Part shown: positions 8,797-27,338 of the stretch, piece by piece
Layout: the number at the start of each line of letters is the position of its first letter
How positions within the stretch are numbered: position 1 is the stretch's first letter
NCBI RefSeq assembly: GCF_003945235.1
Contig: NZ_RSDW01000001.1
Coordinates: 4,770,001-4,802,000, forward strand
Length of the DNA: 32,000 bases
Direction: 5' to 3'
Origin: Edaphobacter aggregans
GTDB lineage: Bacteria; Acidobacteriota; Terriglobia; Terriglobales; Acidobacteriaceae
The notes under the pieces: model-generated
Seen by the model: the letters and a program-made list of their open reading frames with translations, nothing else
The model's database searches: none
What the model was told of the DNA's origin: nothing
Program-made: the position numbers and the translations under genes

Positions 8797-9588
8797 ATGG
8801 AACTCACAGGAAACACAATCTTCATCACGGGCGGTGGCTCCGGTATTGGAAGAGCACTCGCAGAAGCGTTACACCAGCGTGGAAACAAGGTCATCATCTC
8901 TGGGCGGCGCAAGGCCAACCTGGCAGCGACAATTGAGGCGAATCCAGGAATGGACTCGATTGAGTTGGATATTGCAGACCCGGCCAGCATACGGCGCGTC
9001 TCTGCGGAGCTGATCTCCAGGTATCCCAAGTTGAATGTTCTGATCAACAACGCCGGCATCATGTATGTCGACGAGGTTGCAGGCAATGTCGATGACGAGC
9101 TCATTTCCTCGACGATCACCACGAATCTCATAGGGCCCATCCGGCTTACAGGCTCCCTTATCGAGCACCTGAAGAAGCAGGAATCAGCCGCGGTGTTGAA
9201 TGTCTCCTCTGTTCTGGGCTTCGTACCGATGGCGATAGCGGCGGTGTACTCCTCGACCAAGGCAGCTCTTCACTCTTATTCGCAGTCTCTGCGCTTCAAG
9301 CTTCGGAAAACGCGGGTCCGCGTGCTTGAGGTGATTCCGCCGTGGGTACGCACGGAACTTCTTAATAGCAGCGAAGAGTCCCGCGCGATGCCGCTCGACG
9401 AGTTCCTGATGGAGACCATGGAGGTTCTCGAGACAGACGCGGACGAGATCATGGTCGCGCGGGCGAAGTTTCTGCGCGATCAGGCTGGGCCTAACGAGAG
9501 CGCGTTCGTGAATACTTTCAACGAACGGTTCGAGCTCCAGGGACCCCCTGACGCTGCGCCTGTGCAGGAGATTGTAAGCGGAGACTGA
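8797..9588 (+). CDS. SDR family oxidoreductase
   Basis: A 263-aa ORF with TGGGSGIG, NNAG and YSSTKAAL (YxxxK). AAGGAG lies upstream of the ATG. Confidence 0.85.
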   Translation: MELTGNTIFITGGGSGIGRALAEALHQRGNKVIISGRRKANLAATIEANPGMDSIELDIADPASIRRVSAELISRYPKLNVLINNAGIMYVDEVAGNVDDELISSTITTNLIGPIRLTGSLIEHLKKQESAAVLNVSSVLGFVPMAIAAVYSSTKAALHSYSQSLRFKLRKTRVRVLEVIPPWVRTELLNSSEESRAMPLDEFLMETMEVLETDADEIMVARAKFLRDQAGPNESAFVNTFNERFELQGPPDAAPVQEIVSGD

Positions 9589-15180: not shown

Positions 15181-16117
15181 ATGACGAGCGAGCTCATTTT
15201 GGCGCCTGTACCACCTGAAAACAGGGAAGGGGAGCCCCTGACCCTCACCCCGGCCCAGACTGTGCTGCGCAAGATGGTCCTCGACACCGTACCGTCGCCG
15301 CACTCCAAGCGCAACTACGGGAAAGCCCTCGACGACCTCTTCGCCTTCTGTGCCAGCCGACCTCTCTCCCGGTCCTTATTAATGGAGTGGCAGGCGGGCA
15401 TGGAGCCACTCTCGCCCTCCACTATAAATGTCCGGCTCTCGGCGGTGCGGAAGTCGGTGGGCGAGGCCAGGCGGAACAACATGATCGGATCGGAGGAGGC
15501 GGCCAGCCTGACCGACATCCCCAACATCCGGCAGAAGGGAACCCGGCTGGGGAACTGGCTGACCCGCGAGCAGGCCAAGGAGCTGCTGGCCGTCCCCGAC
15601 CGCTCGACGCTCAAGGGCAAACGCGACTACGTCATCCTGGCGCTTCTTGTTGGCTGCGCCCTGAGGCGGAACGAACTGGCCGAGCTTGACGTCGCGACCA
15701 TCCAACAAAGGGAGGGGCGCTGGGTCCTGGCCGACCTGGAGGGCAAAGGCCGCCGCATCCGCACCGTTGCTGTCCCGATCTGGGTCCAAGCAGGGCATCA
15801 ACGCGTGGATGACCGCGGCCGGCATCGAAGACGGACGGCTGTTGCGGTCGGTTTCGAAGAGCGGGAAGGTCAATCGCGACACCTTGAGCGACTGGGCGGT
15901 CTGGTCGGTAGTTGAACAGTCATCCAAGCAAATCGGAATCGAACGCTTCGGTGCCCACGACCTCCGCCGTACCTGCGCCAAACTCTGCCGCAAGAATGGC
16001 GGGGATCTGGAGCAGATCAAGTTCCTACTGGGACACTCCTCCATCCAGACGACCGAGCGGTACCTGGGATCGGAGCAGGATATCGAGATCGCGGTGAACG
16101 ACAACCTGGGGCTGTAG
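15181..16117 (+). pseudogene. tyrosine recombinase/integrase with a single-base frameshift
   Basis: Two ORFs (15181..15915 and 15686..16117) join into one integrase if the C at 15787 is skipped: ...GRRIRTVAVPIWV|KQGINAWMTAAGIEDGRLL.... All catalytic motifs are intact: Arg in GCALRRNEL, HxxR in AHDLRRT, and His/Tyr in LLGHSSIQTTERY. Confidence 0.85.
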
Positions 16118-16193
16118 TGGAGAAGGAGATTCGCTCTGAATCTGGGGACCTTCATCCTCTATACGAGCAGATAGGATGAGGAAGAGAGGTGCG

Positions 16194-17252
16194 ATGGCAA
16201 AGGATTTACGCAAGTTGGTCGAAGCGGACGAAGGCGCGTCAGAGCTCCTCCGTAGCCTTCGCGAACTCATCCAAGGTGCTCGGCAGAGGGCGATTCGGGC
16301 AGTCGATGTCGTTCAGGTGCAGACCTGCTGGGAGATCGGCCGGCATATCGTAGAGTTTGAGCAAGGCGGCCTCGCTCGGGCGGAATACGGAACGCGGCTG
16401 CTGCAGACTTTAGCCTCGTCGCTGGCAGCCGAGTTCGGAAGAGGTTTTGACGCCTCGAATCTTCGCTACATGCGGCTCTTCTATCAGGTCTTTCCAATTC
16501 GTGACGCATTGCGTCATGAATTGAGTTGGACCCATTACCGCACCCTCCTCCGGGTTGAAAGCGAATCCGCACGGCAATGGTATATGAACGAAGCTGCCAG
16601 CCAGGGATGGACAACCCGCGCCTTGGAGCGGCAGATCAACACTCTGTACTATGAGCGGCTCCTTAGTAGCTACGACCGTCCGGCCGTGGAGTCGGAGGCT
16701 AAAAGCAATGTAGCGCCTCTGCAGACGCCTCGCGATTTCGTGCGCGACCCGGTCATGCTCGAATTCCTCGGTCTGCCTGGGGCCGGCAAGCTGCTCGAGG
16801 CGGATCTCGAACGGGCGTTGCTCGATAATCTACAGGCATTTCTACTAGAGCTGGGTAGAGGCTTCGCGTTCGTGGCTCGACAGTACCGCATCAGTTCCGA
16901 ATCCAAGGATTTTTACATAGACCTGATCTTTTATAACTACCTGCTCAAGTGCTTCGTGCTCTTCGACCTGAAGTCAGGCGAGCTAACCCACCAAGATATC
17001 GGGCAGATGGACATGTACGTTCGCATGGTCGACGATTTGAAGCGGGCGCCTGACGACAACCCAACTGTGGGGATCATTCTTTGTACCGATAAGGATGCGT
17101 CGGTTGTCCGCTATTCAGTGCTGCACGAGAACGAACAAATATTCGCCAGCAGATACAAACTCGTCCTTCCATCTGAAGAGGAGTTGAGGGCAGAGCTAGC
17201 TCGAGAACGTAGTGAACTCGCAAAACGAGTCAAACCTTACACTGAGGACTAG
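16194..17252 (+). CDS. DUF1016/YhcG family PD-(D/E)xK nuclease
   Basis: The ORF track gives 16176..17252. ATG 16194, preceded by AGAGG, is my preferred start; 16176 is also possible. The N-terminal pattern is ...GRGFDASNLRYMRLFYQVF...LSWTHYRTLL...WYMNEAASQGWTTRALERQI. The C-terminal nuclease core is FAFVARQYRISSESKDFYIDLIFYNYLLKCFVLFDLKSGELTHQDIGQMDMY, with D...D-x-K. Confidence 0.85.
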   Translation: MAKDLRKLVEADEGASELLRSLRELIQGARQRAIRAVDVVQVQTCWEIGRHIVEFEQGGLARAEYGTRLLQTLASSLAAEFGRGFDASNLRYMRLFYQVFPIRDALRHELSWTHYRTLLRVESESARQWYMNEAASQGWTTRALERQINTLYYERLLSSYDRPAVESEAKSNVAPLQTPRDFVRDPVMLEFLGLPGAGKLLEADLERALLDNLQAFLLELGRGFAFVARQYRISSESKDFYIDLIFYNYLLKCFVLFDLKSGELTHQDIGQMDMYVRMVDDLKRAPDDNPTVGIILCTDKDASVVRYSVLHENEQIFASRYKLVLPSEEELRAELARERSELAKRVKPYTED

Positions 17253-17337: not shown

Positions 17338-18603
17338 GTGGTCAAGCCAATCGTCAAACCAGTTATTCCAAGTGATCTCCAATCAAGAATAGAGATTCCC
17401 GAAACGTTGATCCGCGACTTCGTCTCGACCTTAAATCCGAGCGAGAGTGCCGACGTGCTTCAGTTGTTTGTGGATGCCAAGACGCTTGCGCTTTATTGTG
17501 AGTGCCATGTCTTCGCCAGCAAACTTGTGCCTAATTCAACTATCGACGTTCCATTAGATCCGGAGGAGCAAGCTGAATATAGGGCAAACCGAGAGGTTGT
17601 TGCGGACGCGGCGGCCTTTAAGGCGATGAAAGAGGATGCTCGTGAGCGTCGCAGTTTTAGCAATATAGTCACTGAGTTTACGAAAGAATTCGATGAAGAA
17701 ACTCCATTGAAGATCATCGGCGGTCAGCATCGTTTCGAATCGATTCGCGAGGCTTTAGCGAATGGCATCGACGAAATACATGGCATCAAGGTTTATTTCG
17801 GCCTGACACAGGAACAACGTCTAGATGCGCAGCTTATCTCGAATACGGTAATCGCGGTTCCCACTGATTTGTACGATCGCATGCAAGAGACGATGCGCGG
17901 CCCACAGTTAAGAAATTGGTGTCAGAAGGTCGGGCTTTTGGACAGCGATAAAGACTTTTCTGAAAAGCGACAACGGGGAGGGCAAATCACCGTAAGCGCT
18001 GCTCGAACATTCATCCTCAACTATTATCGCGGGGAGGCTGACGCAAAATCTCCCTTTGAGCAGATTGACACGTCACCGAAATTGTCGAAGAGCGGAAGCG
18101 ACGATGCTGAATGGGACAAGCTTCGCGCAACCGGTAAAGCATGGAAGGACGCCAAGCTAGAAGTCGCAGGTCGAGAATTTGCAGCGTTAGTCAAAGCGCA
18201 GAGACAAGCCTTTGAGAACAAGAAATCTGTCCCCATCGATTCTCGCGAAAAAGCTATGAACTATGCTGTTCTATCCGCTTGGGCGTATGTTGCAGGAGTC
18301 CTCCAAGGGGCAAACAATATTGTTAGAGCTGACCGACACTACGCATTGAAAGATCAGGCGGGACGCGACCCGCTAAATGCGCCCGAACTTGCGAAAGGCA
18401 AGCACACGACCGATCCCGACAATTATCGAGGGCTCGGCTATCGCACGGATGCGAAAGAGCGTGGTCGACTGGTCGAGTTGTTCTATCTACAGGCGGAAAG
18501 TGGCAAAGGGATCACGAAACCACTGATTGAATTGGCGATTAAGAAATACCACGCAAAGCTTGCGAACCTCGACGTGCAGAACGCCGAGAAGAAGGTTGTC
18601 TAA
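17338..18603 (+). CDS. ParB/sulfiredoxin-fold protein of the DndB / DGQHR-like type (motif GGQHR) with a long helical C-terminal region
   Basis: A 421-aa ORF starting at GTG 17338, 5 nt after GGGAG; there is no ATG for more than 90 codons. The core RRSFSNIVTEFTKEFDEETPLKIIGGQHRFESIREALANG matches the ParB N-terminal / DndB 'DGQHR' signature with D replaced by G. The remainder is Lys/Glu-rich and looks helical. Confidence 0.6.
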   Translation: MVKPIVKPVIPSDLQSRIEIPETLIRDFVSTLNPSESADVLQLFVDAKTLALYCECHVFASKLVPNSTIDVPLDPEEQAEYRANREVVADAAAFKAMKEDARERRSFSNIVTEFTKEFDEETPLKIIGGQHRFESIREALANGIDEIHGIKVYFGLTQEQRLDAQLISNTVIAVPTDLYDRMQETMRGPQLRNWCQKVGLLDSDKDFSEKRQRGGQITVSAARTFILNYYRGEADAKSPFEQIDTSPKLSKSGSDDAEWDKLRATGKAWKDAKLEVAGREFAALVKAQRQAFENKKSVPIDSREKAMNYAVLSAWAYVAGVLQGANNIVRADRHYALKDQAGRDPLNAPELAKGKHTTDPDNYRGLGYRTDAKERGRLVELFYLQAESGKGITKPLIELAIKKYHAKLANLDVQNAEKKVV

Positions 18604-19148
18604 TGGCGGCGTTGCCAGAATTCGCAGCCGGCCTATGGGAAGAAGCGAAGCGATTTCTTGAAAAGGCAGAGGAAGACGGACCTTCAGACGGTGCGATTGC
18701 GTTCGTCCACGCCGCTCTCATGCTTGGCTTCGCCTCCTTTGAAGCCCACGTAAACGCGATGGCCGATGATTTTCTCACGACATCGTCTCTCAATCCGCAC
18801 GAGCGAGGGCTCTTGGGCGAACATATCGTCGAGCTTGTCGATGGCGAGTTTCAAGTTAAGGAAGTCCTCAAGGTTCAACGCCTAGAAGACAGGGTACTGT
18901 TCCTATGTAGGAGATTCTCGAAATCGCCGATTGATAGATCCTCGAGTTATTGGGGAGAATTTATGGCGGCTGCCAGACTGCGAAACCGGCTGACGCATCC
19001 TAAGCCGGGAGCACTTGTAATCGAGTTGGAGGAAGTACGCCGGGCGCTGACCGCGATAATCGAACTTCTCAACGTCATGTGCCTAAGCCTCTATCGGAAG
19101 AAGCTGCCTACCCATGGGCGAGGCCTGTCGTCGAAACGAAGTTTCTAG
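18603..19148 (+). CDS. HEPN-domain protein (putative RNase), R-x4-H motif RNRLTH
   Basis: A 181-aa ORF whose ATG overlaps the upstream stop (TAATG at 18601-18605). The sequence looks all-helical. The canonical HEPN R-[ND]-x3-H motif (AAARLRNRLTHPKP, residues 127-132) is encoded at 18981-18998. Confidence 0.6.
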   Translation: MAALPEFAAGLWEEAKRFLEKAEEDGPSDGAIAFVHAALMLGFASFEAHVNAMADDFLTTSSLNPHERGLLGEHIVELVDGEFQVKEVLKVQRLEDRVLFLCRRFSKSPIDRSSSYWGEFMAAARLRNRLTHPKPGALVIELEEVRRALTAIIELLNVMCLSLYRKKLPTHGRGLSSKRSF

Positions 19149-19201
19149 CGATTCGCACCGTTATTTGGTGGGTGATCGCAAATAGAGAGGTTCCAAATAA
19201 C

Positions 19202-19858
19202 ATGGGTCGGGAGTTCTCAATGACAGACGCAATACAGGCCGACCTTTTACGCGCTCAACAGATGCATCAGATAATTTCGGATACCTTGGCCGGAAACTAC
19301 GACGCAGACACACGAAGCACCCTTTTCGCAGGGTTTATGTCGATTTGTCTCTGTCATCATGAGGCTATCCTTTCTTTGCTAACGAACGATAGGTTGACCG
19401 CTTCTGCCTTGGCCTTAATGAGGCCCCTAGTGGAAGCGGGATGCCGTGGTTTGTTCGTCAAGTTCGAGGCAACGGAGGAAGAAGTTGAGATCGTCAGAAC
19501 TGGCGGCGAACCGTATCCCACTTTCCGCAAATTGATTGAGGTTCTCGATAACCGCTTCGGCACCGATAAATTGTTCGGTCAATACGGAGACATGTGGAAA
19601 CTACTAAACGATTTCACGCATACCGGAATAGAGCAACTCTCCAATCGATTCGATGAGAACGGCTCGATCGGATCACATCACAGCGAAGCGACAATCTGCG
19701 AACTGATCAACAGCTCCACATCCACCATGACGCGCATCGCAATTCCTTTTCTCGGTTCGCAAAAGAGCCCAGAAGCGGCAACCATAATCAATGACGCTTA
19801 TGTCGGTCTATATCCAATCCCCGATCGATCACCAGCTACCTCAACACCAAACCGTTAA
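19202..19858 (+). CDS. hypothetical helical protein (possible degenerate HEPN/AbiV-like fold)
   Basis: The ORF track gives 19079..19858. That N-terminus overlaps the HEPN gene, so I prefer ATG 19202 (AGAGAGG upstream) or ATG 19220 (GGGAG upstream). The motifs LALMRPLVEAGCRGLF and WKLLNDFTHTGIEQL resemble the conserved helices of Abi-type HEPN-like proteins but lack the Arg. Confidence 0.5.
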   Translation: MGREFSMTDAIQADLLRAQQMHQIISDTLAGNYDADTRSTLFAGFMSICLCHHEAILSLLTNDRLTASALALMRPLVEAGCRGLFVKFEATEEEVEIVRTGGEPYPTFRKLIEVLDNRFGTDKLFGQYGDMWKLLNDFTHTGIEQLSNRFDENGSIGSHHSEATICELINSSTSTMTRIAIPFLGSQKSPEAATIINDAYVGLYPIPDRSPATSTPNR

Positions 19859-20946: not shown

Positions 20947-21264
20947 ATGCAAAACTTTGATCTGCAACTGGAAGGCATTTCGGAAGCCGACTTGGAGAAG
21001 GTATTGAAAGATGCGCGGCTGTCGCCAGACGCATATAAAGTCAATACACCCAGTCGAAGTACCGGCAACACAATTGTCGACATTATGCTCGAGCTGTCTA
21101 AGATCGATCTCAACGCACTTTCGGTTGTTATCGGCTATCTGATGGGAACTGGTGTGGCGCTGTTTTATATGGAAGGTGTCCGCAAGAAGATCGGGTCCGT
21201 TTCTGATGCCCACAAATTGCTAAAGAAGCTTGAAAAACTAAATCAGGCCGACGAGGATGAATGA
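20947..21264 (+). CDS. small single-pass membrane protein, hypothetical (architecture reminiscent of EACC1-type 'effector-associated constant component')
   Basis: The ORF track gives 20896..21264. I moved the start to ATG 20947, which follows GGAGGG. The 105-aa protein has an acidic N-domain (MQNFDLQLEGISEADLEKVLKDARL...), one hydrophobic helix (LNALSVVIGYLMGTGVALFYM) and a charged tail. Its stop overlaps the next gene's start (ATGA at 21261-21264). Confidence 0.55.
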   Translation: MQNFDLQLEGISEADLEKVLKDARLSPDAYKVNTPSRSTGNTIVDIMLELSKIDLNALSVVIGYLMGTGVALFYMEGVRKKIGSVSDAHKLLKKLEKLNQADEDE

Positions 21265-22755: not shown

Positions 22756-23682
22756 ATGAAGGAGAAGGTACGATTTATAGGTTTGGATGTCCATGCCGAG
22801 ACCATCGCCGTAGCGATAGCCGAACCGGATGGTGAAGTACGGAGTCTGGGAACGATTCCGAACCGTAGCGAGTCGCTCCGCAAGCTGGTTAGGAAGCTTG
22901 GTCCAGCAGAGAAGTTGAGAGCCTGTTATGAGGCAGGACCGACGGGCTACGTGGTGTATTGGCAACTGACAGAACTGGGTGTACCGTGCGAGGTGGTAGC
23001 GCCTACTCTGGTACCGGTTAAAGCGGGTGATCGAGTAAAGACGGATCGGCGAGATGCGGAGAAGTTGGCACGCTGCTACCGATCTGGAGATCTGACAGCG
23101 GTATGGGTTCCGGACGAAGGTTCCGAGGCCTTACGCGATCTCGTGCGTGCCCGCGAAGCAGCCAAACAGGATCAGATGCGAGCGCGGCATCGGTTGAGCA
23201 AGTTTCTTCTTCGCTCCGGCCAGCGTCCACCAACCGGAGTTCGACCATGGACACGCCCCTATCTGATCTGGATCGCGCAGCTACGTTTCACACAGATCGC
23301 CCAGGAATCCACGCGACAGGATTACCTGCACGAGGTCGAGCACATGCGGGAACGGGTAGCGCGTCTGGAGCAAGCCATCACGGAAGCGGTGAAGCTGGCC
23401 TCCCCCGCGTTGCAGCAAGTCATTAACGATCTGCAGGCACTGCGCGGTATCGCGGATATCTCAGCTGTAACCATTGCGACCGAGCTGGGCCAGGTATCCC
23501 GTTTTCACAGTGCCCGGCAACTGATGGGCTATTGCGGTGCTGTGCCCAGCGAAGACTCCAGTGGCAAGCGAACCAGACGCGGTGGCATCACTAAAACCGG
23601 CAACGCGCATTTGCGACGAATCGTTGTCGAAGCAGCCTGGAGCTGTCGGACTGCACTCAAATCCCGGAATTTCGGATTTTGA
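22756..23682 (+). pseudogene. IS110-family DEDD transposase, 3'-truncated by transposon insertion
   Basis: The sequence MKEKVRFIGLDVHAETIAVAI...CYEAGPTGY...VKTDRRDAEKLA...ALRGIADISAVTIATELG...GITKTGNAHLRRIVVEAAWS is typical IS110. Homology stops after codon 296 (23643), and the last 12 codons (CRTALKSRNFGF*) are read from the transposon's terminal repeat. The usual C-terminal segment after the AAW motif is missing. Confidence 0.85.
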
Positions 23683-23747
23683 TCTCATTTTCTGCACTCA
23701 AATCCCGGAATTCAAGACACTCTATGTACTCTAATCCCGGACGAAAG
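23644..23747. repeat. transposon left (tniQ-proximal) end with three transposase-binding-type repeats
   Basis: The repeats are ctgcactcaaatcccggaatttcgg (23651-23675), ctgcactcaaatcccggaattcaag (23692-23716) and gtactctaatcccggacgaaag (23726-23747), all in the same orientation. Confidence 0.8.
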
Positions 23748-24787
23748 AACCTGCCCCGGAACGGTGAAGATTGTGAACGACTGCGCACGTGTTGATTGAG
23801 TGCGGAGGCGAGACGTCGACGCAAAGCAGCTGGCCAGCGCTGGCTTGAGGTCTCGATCAAGCCTGCCTCCCGGTGCGAAAGAAGCGCTAGAACGCGGAGC
23901 CAGAGAACGCAACCATTTCGAAGTCTGTTTTGTTTTCCTCTTGGTACGGAGCCCGGAAGTGCATCCATGATGAGTGATCCGATGATTGTAAGAATCTCGG
24001 TTCTGAAAGCGAAATGCAGATTCCGGGGATCTGTGGATTGGATGGACAGCTCGTGGCTCGGGTACCAGGCGAGGAGCTGGAGAAGGTCTTCTACGAAGCA
24101 ACGAAGCTGTGTCCCAGTGGCTGCTCCCAGCAATGCAGCGTCAGGATTGGCGGCGCGCAGAGCTGCACGATAGATCTGTTCGACGAAGAGTTGCGCTCCG
24201 GCAATCTGCCGCTGACGGGAGCTTGAAGTGGTGAAAGTCAGTTTTGCTCCGCAGCTCCAGCAGAGGACTGGCGCGACGGCGGGAGACGAGCCGAATGGTA
24301 GCGGGTTGTCTTCGCCACACGTAGGACAACCGTGTCGTAGCGGGCTCTTGTGGATATGACATCGCAGCAGGGCGGGGAAGGCCCACTCCCAACGGACGTG
24401 CACATAGGCTTGAAGCGAGATGCAGGGTGGACAAAAGGCATAGCCCGTCCGCAGTCTACGAAGCCGCTGGGATCGATCGGAGACGCCCCAACGCAGGAGA
24501 AGCGCACGTTCCGATTGCGGCAAACGCTTCCGGAGATCAAGTCGACCAAGGCTGCTTACAGACGTTCTAGAGAATGTTGCCATAGCGTTCAAGAACGCGA
24601 GCGGGAGGCCCCAGTCGAGCGAACTAAGACTTGGGAGATCTGAATGGCGACATTGGAACCCGATCATGAGTTCTTCAGGTGATACGCAGTTTGCATGAGC
24701 GATGCGGAGTACCCATGACGAAAATAGCTCGTTTGGGAGCGGTCTCGGAGCAAAGGGCAGTTGAGATGGCGCGGATGCCGTTTTCAT
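23657..24787 (-). CDS. tniQ: TniQ family transposition target-selection protein
   Basis: A 376-aa ORF. The N-terminal TniQ domain is PLPNELFSSWVLRIAHANCVSPEEL. Cys clusters follow (FCPPCIS...CPTCGEDN...CWSCG). Its start overlaps the tniB stop (ATGA). The last ~30 codons run through the terminal repeats. Confidence 0.85.
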   Translation of the reverse strand: MKTASAPSQLPFAPRPLPNELFSSWVLRIAHANCVSPEELMIGFQCRHSDLPSLSSLDWGLPLAFLNAMATFSRTSVSSLGRLDLRKRLPQSERALLLRWGVSDRSQRLRRLRTGYAFCPPCISLQAYVHVRWEWAFPALLRCHIHKSPLRHGCPTCGEDNPLPFGSSPAVAPVLCWSCGAKLTFTTSSSRQRQIAGAQLFVEQIYRAALRAANPDAALLGAATGTQLRCFVEDLLQLLAWYPSHELSIQSTDPRNLHFAFRTEILTIIGSLIMDALPGSVPRGKQNRLRNGCVLWLRVLALLSHREAGLIETSSQRWPAALRRRLASALNQHVRSRSQSSPFRGRFFRPGLEYIECLEFRDLSAENEIKIRNSGI

Positions 24788-25698
24788 CGTGCGGAGACGC
24801 GCCGGTTACGGCGGTCAGCAATCGAGACTAGAGATCCTGTGACTAGATCGTCTTTGAGTAGGCTAAGGCTGATGTGCTCCTGCCCGCTGTGAATCGCTTC
24901 TGTCGCCGCTGTTTCGATTAGCCGACAGATGCGCACAAGCACTCCTTCACTGAGACTTAGAATTCGCTGATGTACTTTGGGATCGCGGAACTCGGATGGT
25001 AGCCGCAGTGGAAGTATGGACTCAAAACTTAGAAGCAACTGCTGAAAGCTGGAATCGTTCTCCCAGGCTGGCAGTTCCGCCGCCTCGAATCGATCGGCAA
25101 GTTGCTGGTCAGTCATGAGCGCTTGCTTCGCTTCGTGAGTTCCCGCACAGACCAATGGCAGTCGCAGATCGTTGGCGAGAAAGCGGATCGAGTTGAGCAG
25201 TATTCGCTGTTCGCGATAGGTGCCGGCGAGAACCGAATGGATCTCGTCGATCACCAGTAGCCGCACTTCAAGTTGACGCGCCAGTGCGCGAATGCGGTGG
25301 CGTAAGGTTGTCACGCTTGTGCCGTGAGTGAAGATCCCGCCCATCGCCGCCAGGATCTCTTCGTAGAGATCACGTTCGCTTGGTGAGGGAGGCATCTGGA
25401 TCGAGACCACAGGAAGTCGGGTTCTTCCAAGCTTTTTGTCGAAGTGAGTTCGATTGTCGCGCAAGAACTTCTGGATGATGCGAGTCTTGCCCATACCAGT
25501 CGAGCCGTAGAGGACGAGGCACGGCATACGGTCGCGTGGAGGGTAGTCGACCAAATCCATCAAGCGTTCCAGAATACGTTCGGCACGAGGATATTGAATC
25601 CAGCGCTCCTGACGTAGCCAATGAATACGTTCAGTATCTGACAGCAGGGCCGCTTCGCGGCAAGGAGGTTGGAGGTGCCCCAGTTCGCTGACGGTCAT
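24784..25698 (-). CDS. tniB: TniB AAA+ ATPase (TnsC-like transposition regulator)
   Basis: The ORF track gives 24784..25710. I prefer ATG 25698 (MTVSELGHLQPP...), which lies 5 nt after GGGAG and just past the tniA stop. The protein carries Walker A (LYGSTGMGKT), Walker B (LLVIDEIH) and the N-terminal ERIHWLRQERWIQYPRA typical of TniB. Confidence 0.85.
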   Translation of the reverse strand: MTVSELGHLQPPCREAALLSDTERIHWLRQERWIQYPRAERILERLMDLVDYPPRDRMPCLVLYGSTGMGKTRIIQKFLRDNRTHFDKKLGRTRLPVVSIQMPPSPSERDLYEEILAAMGGIFTHGTSVTTLRHRIRALARQLEVRLLVIDEIHSVLAGTYREQRILLNSIRFLANDLRLPLVCAGTHEAKQALMTDQQLADRFEAAELPAWENDSSFQQLLLSFESILPLRLPSEFRDPKVHQRILSLSEGVLVRICRLIETAATEAIHSGQEHISLSLLKDDLVTGSLVSIADRRNRRVSAR

Positions 25699-25700
25699 TC

Positions 25701-27338
25701 TTACTCCCAAATCTCGACCGGAAAAGGTTTGATTTCGGTGGGACGAGCTTCGCTTCTTCGAGGCTCGAAGGAGACCGGAGAGGGTTCTGCTGTCGAGGGT
25801 AATTTCGCTTGCCGGCGGCGCTGTTTGGCTAGCGAACCAGCCTGCCGAACAAGCTGTCGCTGCTCCAGGATGTTCGCGAAGATGGCCTCTTCCGTGTTCA
25901 TCCGTCGCCCGCTTTCTCGTGCTTGCTTATTGGCCGACTCTATCTCCCAAAGCGCGATTGGAGGCTGCCGCAGATCGGCGTATGGAACGGGCCAGTGCCG
26001 TCCGTTCGGGTCTTGCACATAGATTCGCGACAAATTCCGTGGGTCGTACTTAACCAACAGCGGATCCTTCAACCGTCCGGCCCATGGGCTGAGCACATTG
26101 TCCCAATAGCGGATGTTGTAAAAATGAATGCCGTCTCTACGAATCTGTCTTGGGACCGCGGGCAGAAAGTTGAGAAAGAACTCCGTTTCGTCGAGCGGGT
26201 CCCGCAGCGACGACGACTTCGTTTGTTCCACCTCCGCTTGCCATGCCGCGAGAGGAGTCGTGCCGAGAGCGGAATGAGTTGAGAGATGGTAGACGCCAGC
26301 GATCTGAAGCGCCAGCCACCGCTCGAACTCTGGTAGCGTCAACGTTGCCCGAGCCTCCGACGCATAAGAACCCTTCTCGACGACATTGGAGAACGTCGTG
26401 CCTGGCAAGAGATGGACTGCCCCCATCGTCGTCCCAATCAACCGCTCGATGTGGCCTCCGAAGTGCGGCCGCCCAGGCGGACGGTGCTCCAGACGGATGC
26501 CATACTCCTGGCACCCCCGAACCAACGCTTCGGCATAAAACTCCTTGGCGTTGTCGACGTGAATCGTTCGCGGGAGGCCATGGACAGGCCATTCGAGTGT
26601 CTGGAGCTCGCGGTCGGCCAACCAACACGTCTTCGGGAGAACAGCTTGGGACAGCGCTAAAGAAACAGATATCGTCGAAGGCGACCAGAGAGAAACGTGA
26701 AAGCCCGCAACCATTCGTGTCCGCACATCGATCGCAAGCGTAAGCCACGGACGCCCGATCGGGAGCCGCTTGTGTTGGTCGACCACGATGATGTCCACCG
26801 GTGTATGGTCGATCTGCAAAAGTTCCATCGGGTGTTCGGGCTGCAAGGTTGAGATCGCAACGGGCCCTAGCAGTTCTCGGGCCTTCTTGCCACCCTCGCG
26901 CTTTGCGGTCGCCAACCGAAGGTCTAGCGCCTCAACCCGGCATACTACGGTGCGATAGTTCGGAGGTGGCATTCGTTGTTCGGCGAAGCGGCGACGAACC
27001 TCGAGCATAAGTGCCGACAGCCGCGGCCGTTCCGGCTTCAAATAAAACTCATGGATGCACGCGCTCAGCAATTGCTCGCGGTCCGCGCCAAGAAGCGGTA
27101 CTTTGGATTCGTGGCCCCGCTTGCCTGGAAGTAAAGACGAGGTTTGGGACCGTTGGCGGTAGCGCCTGAGCAAGTCGTAAACGACGCTCCGTCCTAGGCC
27201 GAGTTCCCGTGCGGCCTCTCCGACACGTTGGGCGCCGGGCCTTGATTGAGCGGCCAACGGGCCGATCACCGACTCGCGCTTCAAAGCCACGAGCCAGTCC
27301 GCTTCCCCCGCGGCTTCCAAGTTGCGCCACTTTTGCAT
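25701..27338 (-). CDS. tniA: TniA DDE transposase (TnsB/MuA-like)
   Basis: A 545-aa ORF with an N-terminal HTH (GEAARELGLGRSVVYDLLRRY). The DDE triad is LQIDHTPVD, TIHVDNAKEF and, 36 residues later, GGHIERL (D-x35-E spacing). Confidence 0.9.
   Translation of the reverse strand: MQKWRNLEAAGEADWLVALKRESVIGPLAAQSRPGAQRVGEAARELGLGRSVVYDLLRRYRQRSQTSSLLPGKRGHESKVPLLGADREQLLSACIHEFYLKPERPRLSALMLEVRRRFAEQRMPPPNYRTVVCRVEALDLRLATAKREGGKKARELLGPVAISTLQPEHPMELLQIDHTPVDIIVVDQHKRLPIGRPWLTLAIDVRTRMVAGFHVSLWSPSTISVSLALSQAVLPKTCWLADRELQTLEWPVHGLPRTIHVDNAKEFYAEALVRGCQEYGIRLEHRPPGRPHFGGHIERLIGTTMGAVHLLPGTTFSNVVEKGSYASEARATLTLPEFERWLALQIAGVYHLSTHSALGTTPLAAWQAEVEQTKSSSLRDPLDETEFFLNFLPAVPRQIRRDGIHFYNIRYWDNVLSPWAGRLKDPLLVKYDPRNLSRIYVQDPNGRHWPVPYADLRQPPIALWEIESANKQARESGRRMNTEEAIFANILEQRQLVRQAGSLAKQRRRQAKLPSTAEPSPVSFEPRRSEARPTEIKPFPVEIWE

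Follow-up and report, generated by a model that had tools for sequence, protein, structure and literature searches.

Gene organization of the locus

This work concerns a pair of adjoining genes in Edaphobacter aggregans (Acidobacteriota; Terriglobia; Terriglobales; Acidobacteriaceae), located in a stretch of 32,000 nucleotides (nt) on contig NZ_RSDW01000001.1 of RefSeq assembly GCF_003945235.1 (positions 4,770,001 to 4,802,000 of the forward strand). This whole stretch is referred to as the window, and positions are given in its own numbering. The upstream gene encodes a protein of 421 amino acids (aa) with a predicted ParB/sulfiredoxin (Srx) fold, and the downstream gene encodes a predicted HEPN protein of 181 aa. 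The features of the locus are as follows.

17338-18603, forward strand: gene of the ParB/Srx-fold protein (P0001), GTG start, 421 aa; open reading frame (ORF) and translation
17719-17733, forward strand: GGQHR motif of the 421-aa protein, residues 128-132
18586-18595, forward strand: purine-rich GAGAAGAAGG, candidate Shine-Dalgarno site of the HEPN gene, within the 3' end of the upstream gene
18601-18605, forward strand: TAATG stop/start overlap of the two genes (TAA 18601-18603, ATG 18603-18605, one base in common)
18603-19148, forward strand: gene of the HEPN protein (P0002), 181 aa; ORF and translation
18981-18998, forward strand: RNRLTH, the predicted Rx4H HEPN catalytic motif, residues 127-132 (Arg127, Asn128, His132)

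An earlier note, made from the letters of the window, had described the one-base TAATG overlap and the in-frame RNRLTH motif, and direct reading of the window reproduced the coordinates of both exactly. The junction reads GTTGTCTAATGGCG at 18596-18609, its context ...gttgtcTAATGgcg... contains both the TAA stop and the ATG start, and the motif is encoded by the codons CGA AAC CGG CTG ACG CAT in frame with the 181-aa ORF. Gene overlaps of 1 or 4 nt are common, and because other junctions in the same window overlap too (at least four, at 9588, 21261-21264, 24784-24787 and 25701-25710), the TAATG overlap taken alone is no more than chance expectation. What does go beyond chance is the conservation of the junction, as in all 11 loci checked by hand the distance between the last base of the stop codon upstream and the HEPN start codon is within -7 to +5 nt, with a start/stop overlap in seven of them.

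The purine-rich GAGAAGAAGG, which ends 7 nt before the HEPN ATG, could serve as the Shine-Dalgarno site of the HEPN gene, and similar purine-rich stretches occupy the equivalent place at three other loci (L001, L010 and L012). The overlap supports the coupled translation proposed in the earlier note; the fixed stoichiometry that it added goes no further than inference, and the HEPN gene has a Shine-Dalgarno-like site as well. The GTG start of the 421-aa gene is preceded by GGGAG, and the N-terminus that it gives aligns with those of homologues. Scans for promoters and terminators returned matches no more than chance, and the other small ORFs between 17000 and 20000 lie antisense within the neighbouring genes.

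Pairing and distribution of the two genes

A pattern scan of 185,579 species genomes, one genome per species, yielded 191 relatives of the 421-aa protein, and the pairing and flank counts given here rest on the best 80 of these 191 census loci. At 74 of the 80, a HEPN homologue lies directly downstream on the same strand, and the six unpaired loci comprise four contig ends and two truncated remnants of the large gene. No third conserved gene was found, the largest family of flanking ORFs being common to 3 of the 80 loci. Among 5.8 billion proteins, homologues of the 181-aa protein make up a small family of 125 clusters, and a homologue of the large protein was present directly upstream of the HEPN homologue in every contig looked up; reverse look-ups from the large protein also gave the small partner, even at a locus at which gene calling had overlooked it. 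HMMER, run exhaustively over 1.84 billion representatives, recovered only 259 relatives of the 421-aa protein. Judged in silico, the two genes are an obligate, tightly abutting and self-contained pair, with contig ends or remnants as the only exceptions, and in this respect the interpretation in the earlier note is supported.

The bacterial carriers in the census belong to Acidobacteriota, Pseudomonadota, Bacillota, Actinomycetota, Bacteroidota, Planctomycetota, Verrucomicrobiota, Nitrospirota, Elusimicrobia and Patescibacteria, and the archaeal carriers to Bathyarchaeia, Aenigmatarchaeota, Micrarchaeia and Methanoregula. The large protein is 50-60% identical between phyla. The window's own genome has one copy, and the family was found in none of 400 other genomes sampled in the same phylum, 13 of the same genus included. 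Because the pair is absent from all 400 of these genomes and identity between phyla is nonetheless 50-60%, the patchy spread indicates horizontal transfer, and the distribution as a whole is what would be seen for a rare accessory cassette that moves horizontally and is under strong purifying selection.

Copies in archaeal metagenome-assembled genomes (MAGs) are those at L140, L143, L146 and L148, the Methanoregula copy lies at a contig end, and the archaeal large proteins are about 40% identical to the 421-aa protein of the window. Decayed copies also occur. The HEPN gene is split by a frameshift with the large gene intact at L092 and L130, the large gene is split with the HEPN gene intact at L125, both genes are broken at L134, L122 and L137 are remnants that lack a HEPN gene, and L121 is a further decayed copy; these come mostly from MAGs, in which frameshifts may be assembly errors.

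The 181-aa protein is a predicted RiboL-PSP-type HEPN protein

The AlphaFold2 (AF2) model of P0002 has a predicted local distance difference test (pLDDT) score of 92.4 and shows a helical bundle with a beta-hairpin insert. The Pfam model PF18735 (HEPN_RiboL-PSP) is matched by 15 of 27 family members at E<=0.1 (best 2.1e-5), and a precomputed match to it is present on several homologues. Profile-profile alignment with hhalign of the family against 14 bona fide PF18735 proteins gave P=0.0018 over 125 columns, with a probability of 15%, and placed LRNxLTH of the family against RRNxIAH. HepT, Csm6 and other HEPN chains dominate the compact, non-significant matches of the model in the PDB, SO_3166 and AF_0298 among them, and the HepT match 7bxo_F in this non-significant Foldseek list has a TM score of 0.65 (normalised by target length) and a probability of 0.8. 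A PDB sequence search with the HEPN family profile returned only designed helical repeats.

A lone Rx4H motif is weak evidence, with about 0.2 estimated to occur by chance in a protein of this size. Across the 69 full-length partners, drawn from many phyla and from archaea, Arg127, His132 and Glu47 are each invariant (69/69), and position 128 is Asn in 65 and otherwise Asp or His. The earlier note had predicted an active ribonuclease (RNase) that keeps its catalytic Arg and His rather than a decayed domain, and had allowed that homologues might routinely lack these residues; both are present in every full-length homologue, which fits the prediction. The 181-aa protein is thus best described, on sequence grounds, as a divergent RiboL-PSP-type HEPN protein with an intact catalytic dyad and probable RNase activity.

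No minimal nucleotidyltransferase (MNT) gene is found among the neighbours in the window, as the earlier note had observed, and none is conserved across the 80 loci. The note had gone on to treat an MNT as the usual HEPN partner and its absence as a clue, and this step does not hold. An MNT is the usual partner of HepT-type HEPN proteins only. Its absence here is expected, because the usual partner of a RiboL-PSP/Abi-like HEPN is a ParB-superfamily (DUF262) protein.

The 421-aa protein is predicted to belong to the ParB/Srx superfamily

The AF2 model of the 421-aa protein (pLDDT 92.3) is laid out as a beta-rich N-terminal part, a ParB-like core that carries GGQHR, and a helical C-terminal half. 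Pfam, NCBIfam and PADLOC contain no model that matches the sequence. In a Foldseek search of the BFVD library, the model gave five matches at E<=1e-3 (best 1.9e-6), and the named matches, with E about 1e-3 to 6e-3 and probabilities of 0.98-1.0 over approximately 300-440 aligned columns, are GmrSD N-terminal (DUF262), DndB-type "DNA-sulfur modification-associated", AIPR and ParB/Srx proteins. Significance was reached only in this library; the same search against the PDB yielded nothing significant, the top match being the N-domain of pNOB8 ParB (E 0.12, probability 0.77, not significant), and a PDB sequence search with the large-protein profile found nothing. The ParB-like nature that the earlier note had assigned to this protein is therefore recovered as a ParB/Srx fold by Foldseek of the AF2 model.

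Profile comparisons point in the same direction. Alignment by hhalign against 25 TIGR03187 (DGQHR) proteins gave P=2e-4 over 60 columns, with GGQHR...ISN placed against DGQHR...IN, and the TIGR03187 model itself gives a weak match at residues 116-165 (E=0.11, 12.3 bits versus a cut-off of 58.85). A TIGR03187 search of the window's own genome returned no match. The GGQHR motif is invariant in all 77 relatives, as are about 20 further polar residues, which include D46, R85, D100, R105, E113, K125, N169, D180, R181, E184, R192, Q288, D359, Y363-R364-G365 and R369. From these alignments, GGQHR is predicted to correspond to motif II of DndB/DUF262 proteins (DGQHR/DGxQR), which binds nucleotides, and it has the form of a GxxR-type phosphate-binding loop (DGQHR, DGxQR or GGCHR). 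A candidate for motif I (QRxxxW) is the invariant Y-R-x-N-R85, approximately 45 residues before motif II and assigned by position only, and a candidate for motif III (FxxxN) is the invariant I-S-N169-T, whose N169 is aligned with the IN of DGQHR proteins. The idea that the protein, like DndB, has a HEPN-like motif in its C-terminal half was rejected, as R330-x3-H334 occurs only in close relatives, does not have the Rx4-6H spacing, and is not among the conserved columns of a 60-sequence alignment.

A "ParBDB" DNA-binding domain has been described for NsnA, SspE and GmrSD (PMC12065111), and the helical C-terminal half of the 421-aa protein may be comparable to it by position. Compared with Burkholderia cepacia, the large protein is 60% identical and the HEPN partner 43%, so that the large protein diverges more slowly. 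Its size, the roughly 20 invariant polar residues and this slower divergence argue for an enzyme or a switch over a simple antitoxin, and the protein as modelled resembles a ParB/Srx-superfamily enzyme or nucleotide switch from the DndB/DUF262 side. Taken together, the pair appears to be a distinct, uncatalogued ParB/Srx branch joined to a divergent HEPN.

Relatives with fused domains

More distant subfamilies of the large protein, at 35-45% identity (L014, L016, L017), keep a HEPN partner with RNxxxH or RDxxxH. Some distant relatives carry an N-terminal HNH nuclease (CxxC...HH...CxxCH; PF01844), namely P0433 (L015:5001-6533) and P0284 (L018:5001-6626), and also P0252, P0267, P0271 and P0274. 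The HEPN gene is absent at both HNH-fused loci examined (L015 and L018; n=2), where the fused genes sit among housekeeping or biosynthetic genes (SelA, PurS). An exchange of effectors on a constant control core, with an RNase in trans in one case and a deoxyribonuclease (DNase) in cis in the other, fits these two loci. In another subfamily (P0257, P0262, P0264, P0266, P0397 and P0444), the large protein has an N-terminal extension of about 50 aa that resembles a ribbon-helix-helix (RHH)/CopG domain (RHH_6, E=0.01), and one relative is labelled "CopG family antitoxin" by JGI. The RHH-extended locus L016:5001-6413 keeps its HEPN partner. The extension could act in autoregulation as a DNA-binding domain, or it could be an additional sensor like the one in NsnA.

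Comparison with known systems

The closest architectural parallel is PD-T4-2, which is listed as "DUF262, HEPN" with two coding sequences and a length of about 1.5 kb (PMC9519451, text and Table S1). Its activity against T4 was validated in K-12 and, through deletion, in the native strain E. coli ECOR65 (Vassallo et al. 2022; PMC9519451), and it has been assigned PF18735 (PMC10952713). Like the window pair, it consists of a ParB-superfamily gene of about 360-430 aa directly followed by a small RiboL-PSP-type HEPN gene, and it is stand-alone, without a DUF1524/HNH domain. The two differ in that the PD-T4-2 motif is DGQQR as opposed to GGQHR, in the extra beta-rich N-terminal region of the window protein, and in that the PD-T4-2 HEPN is a PF18735 protein whereas the window HEPN falls below the PF18735 cut-off.

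Of 18 bona fide PF18735 genes (scores above the cut-off) sampled from 400 genomes of the phylum, 15 abut an upstream gene of 360-430 aa, and the four of those upstream proteins that were scanned are all PF03235 (GmrSD_N/DUF262) proteins that match both the NsnA and the PD-T4-2_A models of PADLOC. For these DUF262 partners (loci L044-L061), the NsnA (Menshen) model gives a higher score than PD-T4-2_A, and the HEPN proteins encoded beside them have no match in PADLOC. Thus PADLOC 2.0 seems to under-detect PD-T4-2-like pairs.

The combination itself appears as a computational entry, "Ribo L-PSP-HEPN ... operon with ParB", in Anantharaman, Makarova, Burroughs, Koonin and Aravind 2013 (PMC3710099, Table 1). 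That class shares with the window pair the HEPN clade, the ParB-superfamily neighbour and the conserved Rx4H, and its partners are DUF262 proteins in the genomes sampled, whereas the partner family of the window has no model in any library searched. The ParB-like COG1479/DUF262/DGQHR core is often fused to HNH, PD-(D/E)xK or HEPN domains (Makarova et al. 2013; PMC3632139). In GmrSD, BrxU and SspE, the DUF262 domain is an NTPase or sensor that controls a fused nuclease (PMC10952713; PMC12065111), and, as in the window protein, a ParB/Srx-fold domain with motif II is followed by a helical domain and paired with a nuclease effector. Their effector is a fused DNase, the C-terminal DUF1524, whereas that of the window is predicted to be a separate HEPN RNase. 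The HNH-fused relatives described above repeat the ParB and HNH combination of the GmrSD group, but with an N-terminal HNH of the PF01844 type.

The DndB/AIPR/DGQHR proteins (TIGR03187, PF14072) share the (D/G)GQHR motif with the window protein. They rank first in the profile-profile comparison (P=2e-4) and also appear in the list of structural matches, and fusions of a ParB-like domain to HEPN have been described in this clade (PMC3632139). Unlike in that clade, the window HEPN is a separate protein of another subfamily, and no dnd genes are present; a HEPN neighbour was found beside canonical DGQHR (TIGR03187) genes at 0 of 25 loci in the phylum sample. The HepT/MntA type VII toxin-antitoxin (TA) system, in which the partner neutralises the HEPN RNase, resembles the window pair in combining a small Rx4H HEPN with a partner from the same operon. 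By contrast, the window pair has no MNT, its HEPN belongs to another subfamily, and its HEPN partner, four times the size, has a ParB/Srx fold.

Genomic context

Directly upstream of the pair, at 16176-17252 (forward strand), lies an intact YhcG/DUF1016 PD-(D/E)xK nuclease gene (PADLOC PDC-S02, E 8e-143), whose product also has a weak match resembling a ParB helix-turn-helix domain (E 3e-4). The next gene downstream, at 19079-19858 (forward strand), has a DUF6988 product (Pfam E 1.4e-11), for which PADLOC gives a match to the candidate single-gene system PDC-S52 (E 1.8e-10). The GTG at 19079, listed as its start, gives a 70-nt overlap with the HEPN gene, and the ATG at 19220, which follows GGGAG, appears to be the more likely start. 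A four-gene cassette of YhcG, the pair and DUF6988 was considered and rejected, as neither neighbour recurs elsewhere. Because no flanking family is conserved beyond 3 of the 80 loci, YhcG and DUF6988 are neighbours within an island and not parts of the system.

The island around the pair is a mosaic that includes a tyrosine-integrase fragment (15181-15915), an IS110-family transposase (22756-23682) and, on the minus strand, a TniQ-TniB-TniA (Mu-type transposase) set at 23657-27338. The GC content is 0.49-0.52 over 17-22 kb, compared with 0.55-0.60 in most flanking sequence, and no tRNA gene marks the island. Other copies of the pair adjoin restriction-modification, ApeA-HEPN, TA, AbiH or Schlafen genes or C5-methylases, and the genomic context gives moderate support to a role in defence. 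In the flanks scanned (150 ORFs from 53 loci; flanks of L070-L127), C5-cytosine DNA methylase is the commonest family, with four ORFs, and one flanking cluster combines Vsr-like and methylase domains. The methylase neighbours possibly hint at a link to DNA modification, in small numbers.

Functional interpretation

The reading that we favour, as somewhat probable on balance, is that the pair is a PD-T4-2-like conflict module for phage defence or abortive infection, in which a nucleotide-dependent sensor or regulator of ParB fold controls an RNase effector. The 421-aa protein would be a ParB/sulfiredoxin-fold, nucleotide-binding sensor or switch with a GGQHR pocket and a C-terminal helical half that probably binds DNA, and the 181-aa protein would be the effector, a HEPN RNase that has to dimerise in order to form its Rx4H active site. 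The two proteins would be translated as a coupled pair and probably held in a complex in which the RNase is silent, until a cue sensed by the ParB-like protein frees or activates it. This cue may be foreign or modified DNA, or a phage product, and its sensing may be coupled to the binding or hydrolysis of a nucleoside triphosphate (NTP), as in GmrSD/BrxU/SspE. The freed RNase would then cut cellular or phage RNA, and infection would stop.

Several observations weigh against this reading. The likeness to PD-T4-2 is one of architecture and not of mechanism. Unlike in PD-T4-2, the large protein of the window is not detectable as a DUF262 protein (no PF03235 match, and an insignificant hhalign P=0.33 against the DUF262 partners of PF18735 genes), and neither P0001 nor P0002 matches any PADLOC family at E<=1, PD-T4-2_A/B and NsnA included. 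The window's own HEPN protein reaches only E=0.19 and 12.1 bits on PF18735, versus a gathering threshold of 28.4, and Foldseek of its model against the PDB gave no significant match (best E 0.29). For a phage sensor, conservation as strong as that of the ParB-like protein is unusual, searches of 72,556 plasmids and 50,697 phage records gave no member of the large-protein family, and many copies sit among housekeeping or ordinary genes rather than in defence islands.

An ordinary TA (addiction) pair, in which the 421-aa protein would be a proteic antitoxin that binds the HEPN toxin and autoregulates the operon, and the pair would stabilise mobile DNA instead of sensing phage, is a possible but clearly less probable explanation. 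Gene order, with the neutraliser upstream and the toxin downstream, and translational coupling are typical of TA pairs, and copies lie beside other TA genes and insertion sequence elements. The RHH/CopG-like extension of some relatives is typical of autoregulating antitoxins, and the locus L016 that carries it keeps its HEPN gene. The frameshifted HEPN genes beside an intact upstream gene (L092 and L130) are what would be expected if the toxin were lost first, but L125 has a broken upstream gene and an intact HEPN gene, which may be a MAG assembly error. A protein of 421 aa with about 20 invariant polar residues, a nucleotide-binding-type motif and slower evolution is, moreover, unlike labile antitoxins, and because HNH-fused relatives exist without a HEPN gene, the core appears to have a function of its own. 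The TA and abortive-infection readings overlap and are not mutually exclusive. We regard it as improbable that the two proteins are independent effectors, a ParB-like DNA nickase or nuclease and a HEPN RNase, or that they serve a housekeeping role linked to DNA modification like that of DndB. Nicking ParB/Srx proteins are documented in work cited in PMC12839542, but a HEPN RNase whose active site is intact should be toxic when unregulated, and a 1:1 adjacency this strict, with codons that overlap, speaks for functional dependence. A modification role could draw on the DndB-like and AIPR proteins among the structural matches and on the C5-cytosine methylases in the flanks (4 of 150 ORFs, 53 loci), whereas no dnd, ssp, dpd or other conserved third gene accompanies the pair and canonical DGQHR genes have a HEPN neighbour at 0 of 25 loci.

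That the two genes are juxtaposed by chance or by an annotation artefact, with a meaningless Rx4H, has a practically negligible probability. Overlaps of 1 or 4 nt are common and Rx4H is fairly frequent by chance, but the occurrence of the pair at 74 of 80 loci across phyla and in archaea, with an invariant motif, refutes this explanation, and both proteins are modelled with a pLDDT above 92. A more specific mechanism, which we put forward as an unlikely one, is that the 421-aa protein, instead of a passive antitoxin or a DNA sensor of the DUF262 type, would be a nucleotide-dependent, sulfiredoxin-like enzyme that covalently modifies the HEPN protein by phosphoryl or nucleoside monophosphate transfer, or an NTP-driven clamp that gates HEPN dimerisation in the manner of ParB CTPases. 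MntA AMPylates HepT, which provides an analogous control logic. If true, control by modification or by a clamp would be a new way to control a HEPN toxin, on a different fold from MntA, and the fused relatives would have put this control core to use with an HNH DNase as well.

Significance

Pairs of a ParB-superfamily protein and a HEPN protein are a recurring architecture of prokaryotic immunity. The combination of ParB and RiboL-PSP-HEPN has been known since 2013, and PD-T4-2 was validated in 2022, whereas the ParB/Srx branch found in the window is uncatalogued, so that Pfam, NCBIfam and PADLOC 2.0 miss a whole branch of ParB-superfamily and HEPN systems. From the present counts, a candidate defence or toxin module that lacks annotation is carried by about 0.1% of species genomes. 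With 50-60% identity between phyla, about 20 invariant polar residues, strict pairing, a presence in both bacteria and archaea, and natural HNH-fused and RHH-fused variants, the family is a good model of this architecture, and it could help to show how a ParB/Srx nucleotide switch controls a separate nuclease.

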